Shown piece after piece: positions 11,849 through 33,414 of a stretch of DNA of 64,000 nt. The translations under genes were made by a program, and so were the position numbers. The notes beneath the pieces are model-generated. The model saw only the letters and a list, made by a program, of their open reading frames with translations. It had not been told where the DNA came from and did not search any database. The stretch is taken from NCBI GenBank assembly GCA_963703315.1, contig OY969811.1, positions 3,680,001 through 3,744,000 of the forward strand. The letters are read 5' to 3'. Every line of letters starts with the position of its first letter. The stretch's first letter is position 1. Origin of the DNA: an uncultured cyanobacterium. GTDB taxonomy: Bacteria > Cyanobacteriota > Cyanobacteriia > Pseudanabaenales > Pseudanabaenaceae.

Positions 11849-14440
11849 ATGAAAGTTACGAATATCGAAGAATTGGAATCGCTGATTCAACGGGTGAAGA
11901 TTGCCCAAGCAAAATTTGCTGATTTTACCCAAGAGCAGGTCGATCGCATCTTTAAACAGGCAGCACTGGCGGCTAATGCAGCGCGGATTCCCCTAGCCAA
12001 GGCAGCAGTGAAAGAGTCGGGTATGGGCGTAATCGAAGACAAGGCGATTAAAAATCACTTTGCTTCGGAAATGATTTACAACAAGTATAAGAACGATAAA
12101 ACTTGTGGTGTAATTGAGTCGGACAAGCATTTTGGCTATGAGCGCATTGCTGAACCTGTGGGACTTTTAGCGGGGATCGTGCCTGTTACCAATCCCACAT
12201 CAACGACGATTTTCAAAGCGTTGATCTCGCTAAAAACCAGAAATGGAATTATTTTCTCGCCGCATCCCCATGCGAAGGAATGCACGATCGCCGCAGCGAA
12301 AATTGTCCTAGAGGCAGCCGTCGCCGCAGGTGCGCCCCCCGATATCATTGGCTGGATTGATGAGCCGACCGTGCCACTCTCTCAAGCCTTGATGCAGAAT
12401 CCGAACATTAAGTTGATTCTGGCAACAGGTGGACCGGGCATGGTCAAAGCCGCCTATTCTTCAGGACATCCTTCCATCGGTGTTGGTGCTGGCAATACTC
12501 CCGCGATCATTGATGAAACCGCCCATATTCAGATGGCGGTAAGTTCGATCATTCTCAGTAAGACCTTTGACAATGGCACGATTTGCGCCTCGGAACAATC
12601 GGTGGTGGTGGTTGATGCAATTTATGAAGAAGTAAGAGAGGAATTTATTAAGCGTGGGGCTTATTTCCTGAATGCAGAGGAACGCGATCTCATTCGTCAG
12701 GTGATTTTGACCGATGGGCGCTTGAATGCGGCGATTGTCGGTCAATCGGTGCAAAAAATTGCGGAAGTTGCGGGATTTACGATCGCTGACAATACTAGGG
12801 TTTTGATTGGGGAAGTTGAGGTGATCGATAAGGATGAACCCTTTGCCTATGAGAAATTGTCGCCAATTTTAGCGATGTATCGGGCGAAGGATTTCCATGA
12901 TGCAGTGGACAAAGCCGATGCCCTCGTTCTATTTGGCGGACATGGACATACTTCGGTACTGTATACGGCTCCTAATAATCAGGAACATATTCGTTATTTT
13001 GAGGCGAAGTTAGAAACATCACGGGTACTGATTAATACGCCATCGTCACAGGGGGCGATCGGTGATCTTTATAATTTCCGTCTTGATCCCTCGCTAACTC
13101 TTGGTTGTGGCTCTTGGGGTGGAAATTCCGTTTCTGCAAACGTCACGCCTCACCATTTGCTGAATGTGAAAACCGCCGCCGAACGCCGCGAGAATATGCT
13201 GTGGTTTCGCATTCCACCCAAAATTTACTTCAAATCTGGCTGCTTGCCTGTGGCATTGCGGGATCTCGCAGGCAAAAAACGCGCTTTAATTGTCACCGAT
13301 CGCCCTTTATTTGAACTTGGCTTAACTAAAGAAGTCACCGATAGCTTAGAAGAAGTCGGACTAGCTCACTACACCTTTTACGATGTCGAACCCGATCCTT
13401 CTTTGGCAACGGTGCGGAAAGGACTAGCGATCTGCAATAGTTTCCAGCCCGACGTGATCATTGCCTTTGGTGGGGGATCGCCGATGGATGCCGCCAAAAT
13501 CATGTGGCTGCTATACGAACATCCTGAAATCGAGTTTGAAGGCTTGGCGATGCGATTTATGGATATTCGCAAACGGGTCTATGAGTTGCCTCCTTTGGGC
13601 GCAAAAGCAATGCTGGTTGCTGTTCCCACCACATCGGGAACGGGTTCAGAAGTAACACCTTTTGCCGTAGTTACCGACGAAAAAACGGGGATCAAGTATC
13701 CTCTCGCTGATTATGCCTTGACTCCAAATATGGCGATCGTCGATCCCGAATTGACCGCTAATATTCCTAAACGCCTTACCGCTTACGGTGGTATTGATGC
13801 CCTCACCCATGCGATCGAGGCGTACGTTTCCGTATTGGCTTCAGAATATACCAATGGATTGTCTCTCGAAGCAATTCGTTTACTGTTCAAATATCTACCC
13901 AGTGCCTACAAGAATGGCGCAAATGATCCTAAAGCCAGAGAAAAAGTGCATTACGCCGCCACGATCGCAGGGTTAGCTTTTGCCAATGCCTTCTTAGGTG
14001 TGTGTCACTCGATCGCCCACCAATTGGGTGGTACTTGCCACATTGCTCACGGTTTGGCTAATGCCTTGATGATTAGTCATGTGATTCGTTACAACGCCAC
14101 CGATGTTCCCTTTAAGCAAGCGATCTTCTCACAGAATAAGTATCCCAATAGCAAATGGCGCTATGCAAGGATTGCCGACTATCTGAATTTAGGCGGTGCG
14201 AATGAAGAGGAAAAAGTGGTGAATCTGATTGCGGCGATCGAAGATCTCAAGCGGCAAGTGGATATTCCTGCCACGATTAAGGATGCACTGGCTGAGCAAG
14301 GTATCGGTGAAGAGTTCTTCATGGCTCATGTCGAAGATATGGCGGATCAAGCCTTTGATGATCAATGTACGGGTGCAAATCCCCGCTATCCATTGATTGC
14401 TGACCTTAAGCAGCTAATGCTACAGGCATACAGTGGTTAG
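11849..14440 (+). CDS. adhE: Bifunctional acetaldehyde-CoA/alcohol dehydrogenase
   Basis: ALDH half (PVTNPTST, ATGGPGMV, GTICASEQ, LTLGCGSWGGN) plus Fe-ADH half (GGGSPMDAAK, PTTSGTGSE, HSIAHQLG..HGLAN). Confidence 0.97.
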   Translation: MKVTNIEELESLIQRVKIAQAKFADFTQEQVDRIFKQAALAANAARIPLAKAAVKESGMGVIEDKAIKNHFASEMIYNKYKNDKTCGVIESDKHFGYERIAEPVGLLAGIVPVTNPTSTTIFKALISLKTRNGIIFSPHPHAKECTIAAAKIVLEAAVAAGAPPDIIGWIDEPTVPLSQALMQNPNIKLILATGGPGMVKAAYSSGHPSIGVGAGNTPAIIDETAHIQMAVSSIILSKTFDNGTICASEQSVVVVDAIYEEVREEFIKRGAYFLNAEERDLIRQVILTDGRLNAAIVGQSVQKIAEVAGFTIADNTRVLIGEVEVIDKDEPFAYEKLSPILAMYRAKDFHDAVDKADALVLFGGHGHTSVLYTAPNNQEHIRYFEAKLETSRVLINTPSSQGAIGDLYNFRLDPSLTLGCGSWGGNSVSANVTPHHLLNVKTAAERRENMLWFRIPPKIYFKSGCLPVALRDLAGKKRALIVTDRPLFELGLTKEVTDSLEEVGLAHYTFYDVEPDPSLATVRKGLAICNSFQPDVIIAFGGGSPMDAAKIMWLLYEHPEIEFEGLAMRFMDIRKRVYELPPLGAKAMLVAVPTTSGTGSEVTPFAVVTDEKTGIKYPLADYALTPNMAIVDPELTANIPKRLTAYGGIDALTHAIEAYVSVLASEYTNGLSLEAIRLLFKYLPSAYKNGANDPKAREKVHYAATIAGLAFANAFLGVCHSIAHQLGGTCHIAHGLANALMISHVIRYNATDVPFKQAIFSQNKYPNSKWRYARIADYLNLGGANEEEKVVNLIAAIEDLKRQVDIPATIKDALAEQGIGEEFFMAHVEDMADQAFDDQCTGANPRYPLIADLKQLMLQAYSG

Positions 14441-14441
14441 G

Positions 14442-14488
14442 TAAATAATGAGTGATGCGCGGCTAAGCCGCGCATCACTCATTATTTA
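14442..14488. repeat. Family F palindrome directly after adhE (likely also a terminator)
   Basis: TAAATAATGAGTGATGCGCGGC-TAA-GCCGCGCATCACTCATTATTTA; homologous hairpin at 58243-58293. Confidence 0.75.
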
Positions 14489-14538
14489 TTGGGAATAGAT
14501 TATTTTGGCGATCGCCAAAATCCTTAACATAACTTAGC

Positions 14539-14560
14539 TTGACATTATACATAGGTATAA
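14539..14560 (+). promoter_or_regulatory. TTGACA followed by palindromic operator upstream of ho2
   Basis: TTGACA (14539-14544) abutting TTATAC-ATAG-GTATAA (14545-14560). Confidence 0.45.
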
Positions 14561-14599
14561 ACTCTAGGATACTGCCACATAAGTTTTGTGGAAATGCCG

Positions 14600-15328
14600 A
14601 TGAGTCACCTAGCTACCCGTCTACGCGAAGGTACGCAAAAATCCCATACTGCTGCCGAGAATACTGCATTTATGAAGTGCTTTCTCAAAGGCATTGTCGA
14701 GATCGTTCCTTTTAGAAAATTATTAGCAAATCTCTATCTTGTTTACAGTACACTCGAAGCAGAATTAAAGTGTCATTCGCAACATCCCATAGTTGGGAAA
14801 ATGCATTTTCCAGAACTTGATCGCCAACAAAGTTTAGAACAGGATTTAGCTTTCTATTATGGCGATAATTGGCGATCGCAAATTGTGCCTTTAAACGCTG
14901 GACAGGCTTATGTTGATCGCCTCAAGGAAATTTCTAATACTTATCCTGAACTACTGATTGCCCATTCCTATACGCGCTATATGGGCGATCTTTCAGGTGG
15001 TCAAGCCTTGAAGCATATTGTGCGTTCGGCTCTGGATTTGCCTAGCGATCGCGGTACAACTTTTTATGAATTTGACCAATTGCCGACGGTAGAAGCAAAG
15101 CGGGACTTTAAAGAGAAATATCGTCAAGCTTTAGATTCTCTTTCTTTGGATGAAGCAACGATTTTAGCAATTGTAGAAGAAGCAAATTACGCTTTTACCC
15201 TCAATCGGAATGTGGTCGATGAGTTGGAAGCAGATGTTAAAGCCGTACTTGATCCCCATGTATTTGAATTGCTGACTAAGCAGGATCGGGCAGGTAGCAC
15301 TGAGCGCCATCATAGTCACGCTGCATAG
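14600..15328 (+). CDS. ho2: Heme oxygenase (biliverdin-producing), low-O2 HO2 type
   Basis: LREGTQKSHTAAENTAFMKCFLKG, AHSYTRYMGDLSGGQ; adjacent to hemN and acsF. Start could be 14588, 14594 or 14600. Confidence 0.9.
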   Translation: MSHLATRLREGTQKSHTAAENTAFMKCFLKGIVEIVPFRKLLANLYLVYSTLEAELKCHSQHPIVGKMHFPELDRQQSLEQDLAFYYGDNWRSQIVPLNAGQAYVDRLKEISNTYPELLIAHSYTRYMGDLSGGQALKHIVRSALDLPSDRGTTFYEFDQLPTVEAKRDFKEKYRQALDSLSLDEATILAIVEEANYAFTLNRNVVDELEADVKAVLDPHVFELLTKQDRAGSTERHHSHAA

Positions 15329-15334
15329 AAATCA

Positions 15335-15369
15335 TCAGAATAAACAGCGCTTCGCGCTGTTTATTCTGA
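15335..15369 (+). repeat. Intergenic hairpin with GCTTCGC/GCGAAGC loop
   Basis: TCAGAATAAACAGCGC-TTC-GCGCTGTTTATTCTGA. Confidence 0.65.
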
Positions 15370-15391
15370 AATATTTATAGGAATTGAATGA

Positions 15392-16792
15392 ATGACTACA
15401 ACCACACAGACAGTTAAATTTGATATTAATCTCTTACATAAATATAATCAGCCCGTCCCCAGATATACCAGTTATCCCCCCGCAACAGAGTTAAACGAAA
15501 ACTTTCAACAAATCGATTTTCGAGGCGCGATCACGGCAGGTAATTTGCAGAAAACGCCTTTATCTCTCTATGCTCACATTCCCTTTTGTGATACCCCCTG
15601 TTATTTCTGCGGTTGCAATACTGTAATTAGCACTCGCAAGGAAATTGCGGAACCTTATTTAGGTTATCTAATTCGCCATATTGAGCAGGTTGCGGCAACG
15701 GTAGATCGCGATCGCCTAGTCCAGCAAATGCACTGGGGCGGAGGCACTCCTAACTATTTCTCCTTTGATCAAGTGGAAAGATTATGGCAAAGTTTTCAAT
15801 CGCATTTTACTTTTGCCGCCGATGCGGAAATTTCCATTGAAGTAAACCCGCGATCGCTGACTAAGGAATATTTACAAGGTTTACGCAATCTCGGTTTTAA
15901 CCGCATCAGTTTTGGCATTCAGGATTTTAATCCACAGGTTCAAGAAGCAGTTAATCGCATTCAGCCCGAAGAGATGCTATTTGAAGGAATGCGTTGGATG
16001 CGTGAAGTGGGCTTTGAAGGTGTGAATGTCGATTTAATCTATGGCTTACCCTATCAAACCCTAGAGACATTCCGCGAAACCCTCGATAAAACCATTGCTC
16101 TTGATCCCGATCGCATTGCGGTATTTAATTTTGCTTATGTGCCTTGGCTAAAGCCATTGCAGAAAAAGAAGATCGATCCCAACACTTTGCCTTCCCCTGA
16201 AGAGAAGTTGCAAATTATGCAAATGACAATTGAGACTTTAACCAATCATGGTTATGTATTTATTGGCATGGATCACTTTGCTAAGCCCAATGATGAATTG
16301 GCGATCGCCCAACGTCAAGGCAACTTACATCGCAATTTCCAAGGCTATACCACCAAGCCCGAATCTGATCTTTTAGGCTTTGGCATGACTTCTATCAGTA
16401 TGCTCCAAAATGTCTATACCCAAAATCATAAAGGGATACAGGACTTTTACAAAGCGATCGATGCAGGGCAATTACCGATTGAGCGTGGTGTCACCCTCAA
16501 TGCCGATGATATTTTGCGGCGTTCGATCATTATGGAATTGATGTGTCAATTTGAACTATCCCAGCAAGAAATTGAAGCCAAATATCATTTAACCTGCGAT
16601 CGCGATTTTGGTAAATATTTTGAGCCAGAACGCTTGAAACTGCGTCAGTTGGAAGCTGATGGTTTGATCGAACTAGAACGCGATCGCATTGAAGTCACTC
16701 CTGCGGGAAGGTTACTAATTCGCAATATTGCCTCGGTCTTTGATAGCTATCTCGCCAAAAATGACATAGGAAGATTCTCGAAATCAATTTAA
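15392..16792 (+). CDS. hemN: Oxygen-independent coproporphyrinogen III oxidase
   Basis: PRYTSYPPA, HIPFCDTPCYFCGC, HWGGGTP, DLIYGLP, IGMDHFA, LHRNFQGY. Confidence 0.97.
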   Translation: MTTTTQTVKFDINLLHKYNQPVPRYTSYPPATELNENFQQIDFRGAITAGNLQKTPLSLYAHIPFCDTPCYFCGCNTVISTRKEIAEPYLGYLIRHIEQVAATVDRDRLVQQMHWGGGTPNYFSFDQVERLWQSFQSHFTFAADAEISIEVNPRSLTKEYLQGLRNLGFNRISFGIQDFNPQVQEAVNRIQPEEMLFEGMRWMREVGFEGVNVDLIYGLPYQTLETFRETLDKTIALDPDRIAVFNFAYVPWLKPLQKKKIDPNTLPSPEEKLQIMQMTIETLTNHGYVFIGMDHFAKPNDELAIAQRQGNLHRNFQGYTTKPESDLLGFGMTSISMLQNVYTQNHKGIQDFYKAIDAGQLPIERGVTLNADDILRRSIIMELMCQFELSQQEIEAKYHLTCDRDFGKYFEPERLKLRQLEADGLIELERDRIEVTPAGRLLIRNIASVFDSYLAKNDIGRFSKSI

Positions 16793-16796
16793 ATCT

Positions 16797-17216
16797 ATGA
16801 CCACTACTTTGACAAAACCGATCGCTTACTGGCAACAAGAATATGTAACTGGTAACTCACAGGTTGATGGACAACATCAGCAAATCTTTGAGATTGTCAA
16901 TGCCCTCCATGATGCTGTAATTACCAAGAAAAATGTTTATAGATTACAAGATCTTCTGGAATGTCTAGCCAATCACACCATCGAACATTTTCAAACGGAA
17001 GAGTCTTTGATGATGGCAGTGGACTATCCCGATTATGATCGCCACAAGCAAACCCACGATAACTTGGTAGCCAAAGTCGATAATTTACTTCTCAAATTTC
17101 GCGATCGGAATACAAAAGTCATCACCACAGAAATCACTCAATTTCTCACTGAATGGTTGGCTCACCATATCAAAGGCGAAGACCAGAAAATGATTCAGTT
17201 TTTGCAAAATAATTGA
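16797..17216 (+). CDS. Single-domain bacteriohemerythrin
   Basis: W...G...VDGQHQQI, EHFQTEE, YDRHKQTH, WLAHHIKGED: full H-HxxxE-HxxxH-HxxxxD di-iron ligand set. Confidence 0.93.
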   Translation: MTTTLTKPIAYWQQEYVTGNSQVDGQHQQIFEIVNALHDAVITKKNVYRLQDLLECLANHTIEHFQTEESLMMAVDYPDYDRHKQTHDNLVAKVDNLLLKFRDRNTKVITTEITQFLTEWLAHHIKGEDQKMIQFLQNN

Positions 17217-17249
17217 TCCCTCCTCCCAGCCCCTTAAATAATTACTACT

Positions 17250-18326
17250 ATGGTTTCCATTCAATCTCGCCCCGAACCTGAACTACTCCGTGATGGCATC
17301 AAAGTTCCTGTTAAAGAAACCCTCTTAACTCCCAGATTCTATACCACTGACTATGACAAGGTTGCAAAGATGGATACTTCTTTGCAGCAAGCGGAACTCG
17401 AAGCCGTTGTCGAAGAACTGCGTACCGACTACAATCGCAATCACTTCAAACGCGACCAAGAATTTGAACAATCTTGGGAGCATATTGATCAAGAAACCCG
17501 TGCTGCCTTCATTGACTTTTTAGAACGTTCTTGCACCTCTGAGTTTTCAGGTTTTTTGCTATTTAAGGAATTATCCCGTCAACTCAAAGATCGGAATCCT
17601 TTACTATCTGAAGCTTTTAACCTCATGGCAAGAGATGAAGCACGCCATGCAGGCTTCTTAAATAAAGCAATGAAGGATTTTCATTTGTCGCTAGATTTGG
17701 TCAATATGACTAAAAAACGTAGCTATACCTTCTTCAAGCCAGAATGGGTAATCTATTCCGTTTATCTGTCTGAGAAGATTGGTTACTGGCGCTATATTCT
17801 CGTGCATTATCATATGCAAAATCATCCTGAAAACCGCTTCTATCCTCTATTCAAATATTTTGAAAGCTGGTGTCAAGATGAGAACCGTCATGGTGATTTC
17901 TTTAAAGTACTATTGCGATCGCAGCCTGATTTATGGGGTACATGGCAAGCCAAACTCTGGGCGCGTTTCTTCCTCTTGACGGTATTTGCCACCCATACAA
18001 TCACCGTATTTGAACGGGCTGATTTCTATAAATCCATTGGTTTAGATGCTCGCCAATACAATAAAGAAGTCGTGGTCAATACCAATCACACCGCCATTAG
18101 TGCCTTCCCTGCGGTACTAGATACCAGTCATCCCGACTTTTTCCCTAGATTAGAGAAATGTGTTGATTATAATTTCAAGTTGATGGCAATTAATGAAAGC
18201 GATCGCCCTCAATTTGTGAAGACCTTACAGAAGTTACCTTTATTCTTGGCGATTGTCTGGCAGTTGCTATTGGTGTATTTAATCAAGCCCATTGATGCTG
18301 AAGCTCAACGTGGCAAAGTTCATTAA
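17250..18326 (+). CDS. acsF: Mg-protoporphyrin IX monomethyl ester oxidative cyclase, probably the low-O2 AcsFII/ChlAII paralog
   Basis: ETLLTPRFYTTD, ERSCTSEFSGFLL, DEARH, YLSEKIGYWRY, DENRH. Confidence 0.95.
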   Translation: MVSIQSRPEPELLRDGIKVPVKETLLTPRFYTTDYDKVAKMDTSLQQAELEAVVEELRTDYNRNHFKRDQEFEQSWEHIDQETRAAFIDFLERSCTSEFSGFLLFKELSRQLKDRNPLLSEAFNLMARDEARHAGFLNKAMKDFHLSLDLVNMTKKRSYTFFKPEWVIYSVYLSEKIGYWRYILVHYHMQNHPENRFYPLFKYFESWCQDENRHGDFFKVLLRSQPDLWGTWQAKLWARFFLLTVFATHTITVFERADFYKSIGLDARQYNKEVVVNTNHTAISAFPAVLDTSHPDFFPRLEKCVDYNFKLMAINESDRPQFVKTLQKLPLFLAIVWQLLLVYLIKPIDAEAQRGKVH

Positions 18327-18360: not shown

Positions 18361-18446
18361 TTATAGCGCTTTTCAAGCAAGCGAGTTACACAGAATTGTT
18401 TCCCCGCCAAAGGTTGGGAAACAATTCTGTACTTCATAGCGTTATA
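18361..18446. mobile_element. MITE family A, copy 2 (inverted, small deletion near the right end)
   Basis: TTATAGCGCTTTTCAAGCAAGCGAGTTACA...GTACTTCA aligns to the reverse complement of 2605-2699. Confidence 0.8.
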
Positions 18447-19503
18447 CGCCAACAGGTGCAGGAATATTACTGAAAGCGCCAACAGAAGGCTTGTTAAATA
18501 CTTGAGCAAGTTGACGAGGAGCGCGATCGCACCAGTTCTTCTTACCATAGACATAACCAGCAATCAAAGGCAATGCCACAGTTGCTTCCGAGTAAACCAT
18601 TTGCTCTTGAACAATATCAACCTTGCCCCAAGAATGTGCTTCCTTCAAAGTCGAACCCGATAGAGCGCCATCGCGTTCATCAGCAACGGTGATTTGGACA
18701 GCATACTTGTGCATTGCTGCCTCAAAACCAAGCAACTCGGCAGCTACTACAGTATCTTGAGCAAAGTTCTTGGGAACACCACCACCGATCATAAATAGAC
18801 CAGTGTGAGGACTTGCCAACTTGCACTGAGTCAATTCACGGAAGTCACGAACGGAGTCAATGCTAACGTGTTCTTCAGGAGAGAACCACTGATGATGGAC
18901 TAAGCCAAAACCTGCGGAACAATCGCTGAAAGCGGGAACGAAGATAGGAACTTGATGCTCGTAAGCTGCCAATACGACAGAGTGACGGTTTTTAGCATTT
19001 TTGTCGAGATATGCACCCATCTCATGGATGAACTCGCGAGAAGAGTAAGGGCGAGGAGGAAGGGAATTAGCAATTTTAGCGATCGTCATGTCGCAAATAC
19101 GCAATTCATCTTCATCGATGTAGGTGTCATAGATGCGATCGATCGCATTTTCGCGGAGTACGGTATCGTCCGCAAAGGTGTCACCAACGTAGTGATTAAA
19201 ACCGAGGGCTTCAAAGAAATCTTGGTCAACGATGTTTGCGCCTGTAGAGACAATCATGTCTACCATGTTGTTGGCGATTAGGTCGTAGACAACACCCTTG
19301 AGTCCCGCACTAAATAAAGAACCTGCCAAGCACAAGATGATCGCGCAATCTTTGTCCTTGATCATATCGTCATAGATATGCGCTGCACGTCCAAGGTTAC
19401 GACCTTGAAAAGCAGTATTTGCCATTGCGTCAACCAATCCGACCACATCAAAGGATTTGATGTCAATGTGTTTTACAGTCTGCTTAAGTAGTTCGCGTTT
19501 CAT
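18442..19503 (-). CDS. speY: Deoxyhypusine synthase-like protein (cyanobacterial homospermidine pathway, SpeY type)
   Basis: AFQGRNLGRA, VSTGANIVDQD, IDRIYD, PAFSDCSAG, IGGGVPKNFAQD, DGALSGSTLKEAHSWGK (catalytic Lys). Confidence 0.85.
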   Translation of the reverse strand: MKRELLKQTVKHIDIKSFDVVGLVDAMANTAFQGRNLGRAAHIYDDMIKDKDCAIILCLAGSLFSAGLKGVVYDLIANNMVDMIVSTGANIVDQDFFEALGFNHYVGDTFADDTVLRENAIDRIYDTYIDEDELRICDMTIAKIANSLPPRPYSSREFIHEMGAYLDKNAKNRHSVVLAAYEHQVPIFVPAFSDCSAGFGLVHHQWFSPEEHVSIDSVRDFRELTQCKLASPHTGLFMIGGGVPKNFAQDTVVAAELLGFEAAMHKYAVQITVADERDGALSGSTLKEAHSWGKVDIVQEQMVYSEATVALPLIAGYVYGKKNWCDRAPRQLAQVFNKPSVGAFSNIPAPVGV

Positions 19504-19930
19504 GATTCTGTTTGTCCTAGATGCTGTGTGTTGTAAATGTATGCAGGAAAAAAATTTGAGCAGAATTCAATAACAAAACAAGCAGAATCACATACCTATG
19601 GGCTAGGAAATTTTCTCCGCGATAATGTTGGCTTTATGCTTGACAGTCACAATCATTTATCAGTAAAGATGTGATCAAGATAAAAACATTACACACAGAA
19701 ATTTCCTATCCCCAAAGGATTGATTTCTAATGCCTATTCAGTTTTGAAAAATATTTAGCCTTCTCTAAATAATGAGAAGCGATCGACCTAGGTTGTTAAC
19801 AGTGGTTACAACCCTAGCAGTTAGAAGGTCGATCGGAACATACTAGGTCCTTCACAGGCATCATCCCAAGAAAGAGTAGGGTCAGACTCACGTCTTTCAC
19901 CCAACTTTAAATTGAGGAGCCAGTCACATC
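19504..19930 (-). ncRNA. Candidate structured cis-regulatory leader RNA (riboswitch/attenuator-like) of speY
   Basis: Nested stems capped by AGAC-GUGA-GUCU, plus several mutually exclusive pairings; see findings. Confidence 0.45.
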
Positions 19931-20143
19931 CAAGCAATAAAACCAGTTTTTTCAATTTTTATCTAGCTAAGTGCAAAAAATCCTTATTTATAATAGCACT
20001 CTTTTTGATAAATACAAGCAAAATGGCGCTAGAGAATTTATGTGTAAATAAGTTTAACTTTGTATCAGGAGACTTGTAGAGACTTAAGCCTCCTTCTTGA
20101 AACAAAGATTGAAACAAAGACGTATTTTCATACAGGGACGATC

Positions 20144-32022: not shown

Positions 32023-33414
32023 GTGACGACGACCATTAACTTAAACTCGCTAGGAGTGGGCGGGCGTACACAGGATTCATCGGGCTTTGCTTGGTGGTCT
32101 GGCAACGCACGACTCATTAACCTTTCTGGCAAACTGCTGGGCGCTCACGTTGCTCACGCTGGATTGATCGTATTCTGGGCTGGTGCAATGACTTTGTTTG
32201 AAGTTGCACACTTTGTTCCTGAAAAGCCTCTCTATGAGCAAGGTTTTATCTTGCTACCTCACCTTGCTACTCAAGGTTGGGGTGTGGGTGCTGGTGGCGA
32301 AATTGTTGATATATTTCCCTACTTTGTAGTTGGTGTTTTACACCTGATTTCCTCCGCAGTACTTGGCTTTGGTGGTATCTACCATGCTTTGCGCGGACCT
32401 GAAGTACTTGAGAACTATTCTTCTTTCTTTGGCTACGACTGGAAAGATAAGAACCAAATGACCAATATCATTGGGTATCACCTAATTGTTTTGGGATTTG
32501 GGGCGCTTCTGCTTGTATTTAAAGCGATGTTCTTTGGTGGACTCTACGACACTTGGGCTCCTGGTGGTGGTGACGTACGGGTAATTACCAACCCAACCAT
32601 TAACCCTGTAATCATCTTCGGTTATCTCCTTAACTCACCCTTTGGTGGCGAAGGCAACATTGTTGGTGTTGATAACCTTGAAGATGTTGTTGGTGGTCAT
32701 ATCTGGATTGGCTTGATCTGCATCACTGGTGGTATTTGGCATATTGTCACTAAGCCTTTCGGTTGGGCGCGTCGTGCCTTGGTTTGGTCTGGTGAAGCAT
32801 ATCTTTCCTACAGCCTTGGCGCATTGAGCTTGATGGCATTTATCGCTACTTGCTTTGTATGGTTTAACAACACTGTTTATCCTAGTGAGTTCTTTGGTCC
32901 TACTGGTGCTGAAGCTTCTCAGTCTCAAGCATTTACTTACCTTGTACGTGACCAAAAGTTAGGTGCAAACATCGCAACTTCTCAAGGTCCTACTGGTCTT
33001 GGTAAATACCTGATGCGTTCTCCTTCGGGCGAAATCATCTTCGGTGGTGAAACCATGCGTTTCTGGGACTTCCGTGGTCCTTGGTTAGAGCCTCTGCGTG
33101 GTCCTAGCGGTTTGGATATTGACAAACTCAAGAATGATGTTCAGCCTTGGCAAGTACGTCGTGCTGCTGAGTACATGACCCATGCTCCTTTGGGTTCCTT
33201 GAACTCAGTTGGTGGTGTTATCACTGAAATTAACGCAGTTAACTTCGTATCTCCTCGTTCTTGGTTGTCTACTTCTCACTTCGTATTGTCCTTCATGTTC
33301 CTAGTTGGTCACCTATGGCACGCTGGTCGCGCTCGCGCGGCTGTTGCTGGCTTTGAAAAAGGTATTGACCGTAAGACTGAAGCTGTACTGTCTATGCCTG
33401 AGCTTGATAAATAG
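32023..33414 (+). CDS. psbC: Photosystem II CP43
   Basis: [55 protein letters not shown] start with GGAG RBS. Confidence 0.99.

Follow-up and report, generated by a model that had tools for sequence, protein, structure and literature searches.

A conserved upstream open reading frame within cyanobacterial speY leaders: a candidate arrest peptide of the polyamine pathway

Judged by its substitution pattern in relatives, the leader of the cyanobacterial gene speY harbours a conserved upstream open reading frame (uORF) that is under selection at the peptide level. This regulatory leader is real and peptide-based, and it is apparently undescribed. We infer from the sequences that the peptide is translated and stalls the ribosome, as well as its ligand and direction of action, and we consider that it probably controls speY as a cis-acting arrest (leader) peptide. 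In the window, by which we mean the whole analysed stretch of 64,000 nucleotides from an uncultured member of the Pseudanabaenaceae, the locus comprises the following features:

19990-19998, minus strand: extended -10-like promoter element (TGnTAnnnT), recognised as a motif in relatives
19821-19955, minus strand: uORF of 44 aa that starts with UUG and encodes the leader peptide (M)KKLVLLLGCDWLLNLKLGERRESDPTLSWDDACEGPSMFRSTF, from translation and coding signature; unannotated
19842-19847, minus strand: Pro-Ser codons CCU AGU, putative arrest site, from AGU invariance and the variable tail and stop beyond
19780-19835, minus strand: long stem consisting of P1 (19835-19826/19789-19780), an 11-nt bulge and P2 (19815-19805/19800-19790), from covariation
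19746-19779, minus strand: small hairpin P3 (19779-19760) and, behind it, a U-rich run (19753-19746), weakly terminator-like, from pairing in relatives
19603-19708, minus strand: variable spacer, containing in this genome a long hairpin and, at 19608-19603, an anti-Shine-Dalgarno (anti-SD) segment, from folding and a family test
19515-19520, minus strand: Shine-Dalgarno (SD)-like site of speY, from sequence, with an equivalent site in most of 41 family loci
18442-19503, minus strand: speY, deoxyhypusine-synthase (DHS)-like G44G (1,9-bis(guanidino)-5-aza-nonane) synthase, 353 aa (NCBIfam PRK02492, Pfam DS)

The window locus is the leader of speY, and its divergent neighbour is a methyl-accepting chemotaxis gene, whose promoter region probably accounts for a conserved block at 20040-20000, 5' of the extended -10 element in Pseudanabaenaceae. 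An earlier, sequence-only reading of this DNA had assigned the downstream gene to the homospermidine pathway, which is borne out by a score of 591 bits against the PRK02492 profile (cut-off 500), placing the protein in the PRK02492 clade (clade A). Both speA and a gene of the agmatine-iminohydrolase family were found in the genome, which has no match to the arginase/agmatinase family and no spermidine synthase above cut-off. Furthermore, no rho gene exceeds the cut-off in this complete genome (best score 33.9 bits, cut-off 509), and a Rae1 family gene is present. The closest named relatives, among the matches listed in our GTDB scan, belong to Pseudanabaena. Elsewhere in the window, the Rfam scan located an IsrR antisense RNA (32440-32626, minus strand, 173.7 bits), and a profile search confirmed acsF within a plus-strand cluster at 11849-18326, the rest of which presumably encodes adhE, heme oxygenase, hemN and hemerythrin and would form, with acsF, a low-oxygen tetrapyrrole set. 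SpeY homologues convert two agmatines to G44G, which afterwards becomes homospermidine, a route whose chemistry was settled only recently, as given in PMC13625781.

The coding signature was measured on 87 distinct 28-codon cores, 41 from Pseudanabaenaceae and 46 from others. Entropy at codon positions 1, 2 and 3 was 0.58, 0.40 and 1.27, and the in-frame pN/pS amounted to 0.12 in Pseudanabaenaceae and 0.19 in the others, as opposed to 1.5-2.3 in the other two sense frames; the antisense frame that has its third positions in common gave 0.20-0.38, as expected. Stop codons interrupt none of the 87 cores in the uORF frame versus 79 and 83 of them in the other sense frames. The peptide ends in the motif W-x-L-x3-L-x3-R-x3-P-x-L-S-W-x-D-x-C-E-x-P-S, and W-x-D-x-C-E-x-P-S-M closes an open frame in 29 of 30 loci, the thirtieth being devoid of upstream DNA. 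Conservation covers the last 27 residues, the N-terminus and the tail being variable, and the search pattern itself accounts in part for the invariance of several residues. An in-frame UUG, GUG or AUG is located 11-14 codons ahead of the first Trp in 120 of the 124 leaders (UUG alone in 110), and this distance shifts by whole codons only (11-14, once 19), unlike the distance to the extended -10-like motif, which shifts by single bases. The peptide has no Pfam or NCBIfam match (Pfam to E 10). Searching 1.84 billion representatives with it returned 22 matches, 21 of which belong to the uORF family, and the named matches among the ten looked up are cyanobacterial hypothetical proteins; existing annotation either omits the ORF or gives it as a hypothetical protein with wrong starts.

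In 90 of 95 distinct loci the TGnTAnnnT motif lies no more than 120 nt 5' of the codon for the first Trp; here it would place the transcription start near 19983, and a consensus promoter scan listed no minus-strand promoter. As weak evidence, RNA assembled into contigs from relatives (shares up to 0.21) extends into the 19939-19995 bin, with no contig lying above 19995. On RNA contigs from two studies of relatives the leader is joined to the speY start, a weak hint as these contigs may be DNA.

How tightly is the leader linked to speY? A GTDB scan with the peptide pattern gave 165 matches, 164 of them confirmed, and all of the 80 listed among these 164 carry cyanobacterial titles. The upstream DNA of the window matches 23 of 23 same-genus loci and four distant ones, which precede another DHS-like clade that is only about 32% identical (clade B, PRK00770). 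Of 401 cyanobacterial genomes, 176 yielded the leader and 246 a DHS-family gene; the two co-occur in 175, the leader stands alone in 1, the gene alone in 71, and 154 have neither, with the reservation that kin are not independent. Among 124 distinct leaders, 73 lie before clade B, 48 before clade A, 2 at a contig or locus end, and 1 is an orphan. Overall, 134 of 138 leaders (121/124 and 13/14) directly precede a speY of either of the two 32%-identical clades, which upholds the initial view of a conserved cis-regulatory leader tied to this gene, and the leader probably responds to the polyamine pathway. Where a genome has two speY paralogues, it has two leaders as well (verified in G292; by coordinates in G491), and in G292 both SpeY clades are present, each with a leader of its own.

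The 71 DHS-family-positive genomes lacking a leader match count against an arrest leader, as do two orphan leaders without speY within 1.5 kb (L171 in genome G589, L179 in G636). In L171 an otherwise conserved Asp is replaced by Val, and its genome has no DHS-family match, both of which fit decay after gene loss. Upstream of four DHS-family genes (L125-L128) no leader match was found, and at G033:C111:17454-18476 the speY match falls into two pieces behind an intact leader, possibly owing to a frameshift. A family containing Nostoc and Fischerella (its peptides being identical to entries so named) has the leader in just 13 of 251 genomes; 12 of these 13 and one metagenome locus combine a clade A speY with a short spacer and no long stem. 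Within this family a minority (L174-L187) has leader plus clade A speY, and two other members that were checked have a clade B speY and no leader, a pattern that suggests a transferred cassette.

Several other explanations of the conserved stretch were discarded. It is not a repeat or mobile element, being single copy (best other match E 0.17), and viral contigs gave one match, spurious on inspection. A fusion of uORF and speY was dismissed as the long cluster members P0030 and P0031 are unrelated proteins, and the spacers of 63-1095 nt argue against a frameshift product of the two. The peptide is an improbable substrate of the DHS-like enzyme, given that no more than 103 of 124 leaders retain the candidate Lys.

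Conservation stops at Pro-Ser. The tail beyond comprises 3 to more than 60 residues, a range that short-spacer loci span as well, and the stop position is variable: of 124 leaders, 73 have UGA as the codon that opens P1, and 45 have CGA there, which lengthens the ORF by four codons. The window locus has CGA at this point, so that its uORF stop falls in the P1-P2 bulge. Because conservation ends at Pro-Ser and the stop moves freely, arrest would take place during elongation at these codons rather than at a stop. All 138 leaders (124/124 and 14/14) use AGU for this Ser, a codon that makes up 24% of Ser codons in this genome; this invariance is not built into the search pattern and lacks an explanation under an arrest leader. 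Pairing of the Pro-Ser codons with the P1 3' strand was rejected by eye, as the third base of the Pro codon does not track the junction base.

P1 begins 9 nt past the first base of the Ser codon, coinciding with the UGA stop in most lineages, and its partner was located by best-complement search in 92 of 95 loci, three of them weak. On 34 diverse rows picked from these 92, the 16 pairs of P1 and P2 are 98.5% paired with two-sided change at 10; none of 500 shuffles did as well and slid controls reached 16-48%, relatedness being uncontrolled. In 32 Pseudanabaena rows, 96% are paired and four pairs show two-sided change. The sequence-only reading had proposed three competing partners for a segment within this stem. 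Mostly they do not compete: CGAUCGACCU and AGGGUUGU pair simultaneously with adjacent parts of 19800-19780 and form with it one long covarying stem, and pairing of the third, GACCUAG (19849-19843), is not kept in relatives. The bulge between P1 and P2 (window 19826-19816; L025-L124) keeps a U-A-A-C-U-like sequence across families, possibly a protein or nuclease site. The long stem is absent from three of 95 loci and from 14 short-spacer loci, which counts against an arrest leader. P3 is 99% paired in 32 rows without two-sided change, and TTTT follows within 45 nt of P1 in 76 of 92 loci; P3 and the U-run are both weak here and were not called by a terminator scan, which likewise speaks against such a leader.

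The leader-speY spacer measures 63-1095 nt (median 362). An anti-SD opposing the SD of speY, also part of the original proposal, lies about 100 nt ahead of the speY ATG and is partly conserved, as 20 of 41 loci (kin not independent) beat at least 48 of 50 shuffles, but folding models over 40 loci predict no switch, SD pairing being insensitive to the ribosome footprint (0.79, 0.77, 0.79). Two loci, L008 and L024, bear an inserted palindromic repeat (about 90 nt); in one of them it lies upstream of the promoter, in the other it sits in the spacer close to the SD, and neither insertion touches the uORF.

The initial interpretation had been a metabolite-binding riboswitch, with an aptamer at 19924-19854 and a downstream expression platform. 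All motifs quoted for it are found where they were placed, the gene association is real, and the GC-richer core exists (0.48 at 19800-19899 versus 0.32-0.36 in flanking non-coding bins), with a GC content matching that of the speY coding region (0.42-0.49). In this genome the segment also folds better than shuffles (z-score -2.5 for 19935-19770, -5.5 for the whole leader), and the conserved P1-P2 bulge and the AGU constraint indicate some nucleotide-level selection. However, the ACUGGC/GCCUGU stem, which offers five pairs and one U-U mismatch, is missing from the minimum-energy fold of 19935-19770. Among 41 Pseudanabaenaceae cores the five helices of the nested fold have 66-97% of cells paired, and one pair out of 23 shows two-sided change; among 48 cores from outside that family only 27-64% of cells are paired. 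The GNRA cap loop occurs in 37 of the 41 and in 2 of the 48. An Rfam check found no gathering-score match and only chance matches at E up to 10, in line with the earlier remark that the element belongs to no named RNA family. Since variation in the conserved core falls on third codon positions, with an open frame preserved rather than base pairs, and since the peptide persists where the long stem is lost (in one sub-lineage), the sensor is most likely the nascent peptide in the ribosome rather than an aptamer; the aptamer interpretation is largely refuted and has in our view a very slim chance. The stretch proposed as an aptamer is coding sequence of the uORF, which had been missed along with the element's 5' end (position 19955, and the promoter at 19998).

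Two other readings accept the peptide and give it a different task. The uORF might encode a small trans-acting protein, for example one binding or activating SpeY, with the stem merely protecting or ending the transcript; 27 residues conserved at peptide level and the annotation of some copies as hypothetical proteins agree with this. Against it, the leader is always directly upstream, one per paralogue, and is kept with enzymes only 32% identical; moreover, the weak UUG start, the tail running freely past Pro-Ser, the codon-level constraint on AGU and the fixed distance of the stem from that codon are features that make a trans-acting protein improbable. A classical amino-acid attenuator, whose Arg/Lys-rich patch would sense arginine, the precursor of agmatine, through uncharged tRNA, could draw on one invariant Arg with neighbouring Arg/Lys and on an arginine-derived SpeY substrate in a genome with speA. 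Yet the patch has only two Arg codons here, at least 16 codons before Pro-Ser and beyond footprint reach of P1, and attenuation would not account for W, D, P, L, S, W, D, C, E, P and S being conserved, so that we hold it for highly improbable.

For the arrest peptide, we propose that the transcript begins near 19983 and that ribosomes start weakly at the UUG. The conserved last 27 residues would then fill the exit tunnel, and stalling of the ribosome at Pro-Ser would depend on a cationic metabolite of the pathway, either agmatine (the substrate) or the level of homospermidine or polyamine. A cationic ligand is suggested by the function of speY and by the conserved Asp, Asp and Glu, which would fit a polycation site. 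Footprint folding, in which ribosome-covered bases were masked with Pro, Ser or Met in the P site, predicts that P1 stays intact with Pro and that its probability drops from 0.9-1.0 to 0.3-0.5 with Ser and to 0 with Met; the P1 5' strand lies under the ribosome once Ser or Met occupies the P site, and hence stalling and P1 would be mutually exclusive. P3 forms in the free and stalled states alike in these models, so that no classical antiterminator is predicted, nor does an SD switch emerge from folding with the footprint, both of which count against the arrest model. With Rho not found and Rae1 present, intrinsic termination, decay or SD access remain as outputs. As the most probable output, a stalled ribosome would keep the P1-P3-U-rich unit from causing early, Rho-independent termination or decay and so permit speY expression; in short-spacer lineages, which have no long stem, this peptide would probably act directly on speY initiation.

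Given an arrest leader, stalling that switches speY on has about an even chance, and we slightly favour it over stalling that switches it off. The opposite sign with the same sensor, in which high polyamine causes stalling followed by mRNA cleavage (e.g. by Rae1) or blocked speY initiation, is rather unlikely and is counted as the main alternative branch within the probability assigned to the arrest leader. Repression is favoured by the Rae1 family gene in the genome, the B. subtilis Rae1 being described to cleave behind stalled ribosomes in short ORFs (PMC12407103), by eukaryotic Pro-Ser uORFs, which according to PMC2811004 repress at high polyamine, and by the lack of a predicted antiterminator. 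Conversely, arrest leaders of bacteria, SpeFL and TnaC among them, turn downstream genes on, as given in bioRxiv 10.1101/604074, and in most loci the stem is succeeded by a terminator-like hairpin with a U-rich run.

Several traits of the speY leader fit the class of arrest peptides: the uORF is conserved, upstream of and co-oriented with speY; amino-acid conservation is concentrated in a C-terminal stretch of tunnel length, partly as a result of the search pattern; and a stem lies within footprint reach of Pro-Ser, save in short-spacer lineages. With TnaC and other metabolite-sensing arrest peptides it has in common conserved Trp, Asp and Pro over a tunnel-length stretch. TnaC arrests the ribosome at a fixed stop, blocking Rho, whereas here the stop moves and Rho was not found. 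SpeFL (orf34, DUF2618), the leader of speF in gamma-proteobacteria, is likewise a short conserved uORF before a polyamine-synthesis gene, with a hairpin over the uORF 3' end that includes its stop and is unwound by the ribosome, as described in bioRxiv 10.1101/604074; similar are also the spacer of a few hundred nt (257, against a median of 362 here) and a basic residue pair in mid-peptide. In contrast, SpeFL senses ornithine and acts through Rho according to the same source, an output that cannot apply in a genome where no Rho was found, and it differs in gene, phylum, start codon and a stop position that is not fixed here. Furthermore, none of 17 uORF family members matched DUF2618, and the HIRRXXH motif given for SpeFL is absent from the family alignment. 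The odc1 motif of alpha-proteobacteria (uORF-25-1) also places a conserved UUG-start uORF and RNA structure before a polyamine-synthesis gene, but as described in PMC8632094 it specifies an 11-aa peptide overlapping the main ORF start, with a pseudoknot upstream of the uORF, in another gene and phylum.

The eukaryotic AZIN1/ODC uCC and the small uORF of plant AdoMetDC, as presented in PMC2811004, resemble our peptide in their non-AUG start, their conserved C-terminal part closed by Pro-Ser, and their position before polyamine-pathway genes. Unlike them, the speY leader is bacterial, has no Pro-Pro pair, and continues after Pro-Ser for at least two more codons instead of a stop; and as there is no scanning here, termination, decay or SD access must be the output. 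This likeness is meant as an analogy only, and we claim no homology.

Only a few bacterial arrest peptides are known to sense metabolites. The literature we searched describes neither a speY leader element nor an arrest peptide for cyanobacteria or the agmatine-SpeY route to homospermidine, motif-survey supplements, which could list it as an unnamed motif, and subscription papers lying outside its scope; the main text of PMC11109978 mentions neither cyanobacteria nor polyamines. Tentatively, and with somewhat less than even confidence, we propose that this is the first bacterial arrest peptide sensing agmatine or homospermidine: an old cyanobacterial family with an elongation stall at Pro-Ser(AGU), a stem at the mRNA entry channel and Rho-free control, a portable module kept with or moved between two distant SpeY clades, and convergent on the non-AUG/Pro-Ser design of eukaryotic polyamine uORFs. 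The present analysis corrects the annotation of an ORF that was missed or mis-started as a hypothetical protein, and offers a defined candidate of 40-44 residues with more than 130 natural variants, among which stop-moved and stem-less forms serve as natural controls. If true, the model would show how Rho-less bacteria couple ribosome stalling to gene control, and it would bear on whether the polyamine sensitivity of Pro-Ser is common to bacterial and eukaryotic ribosomes.
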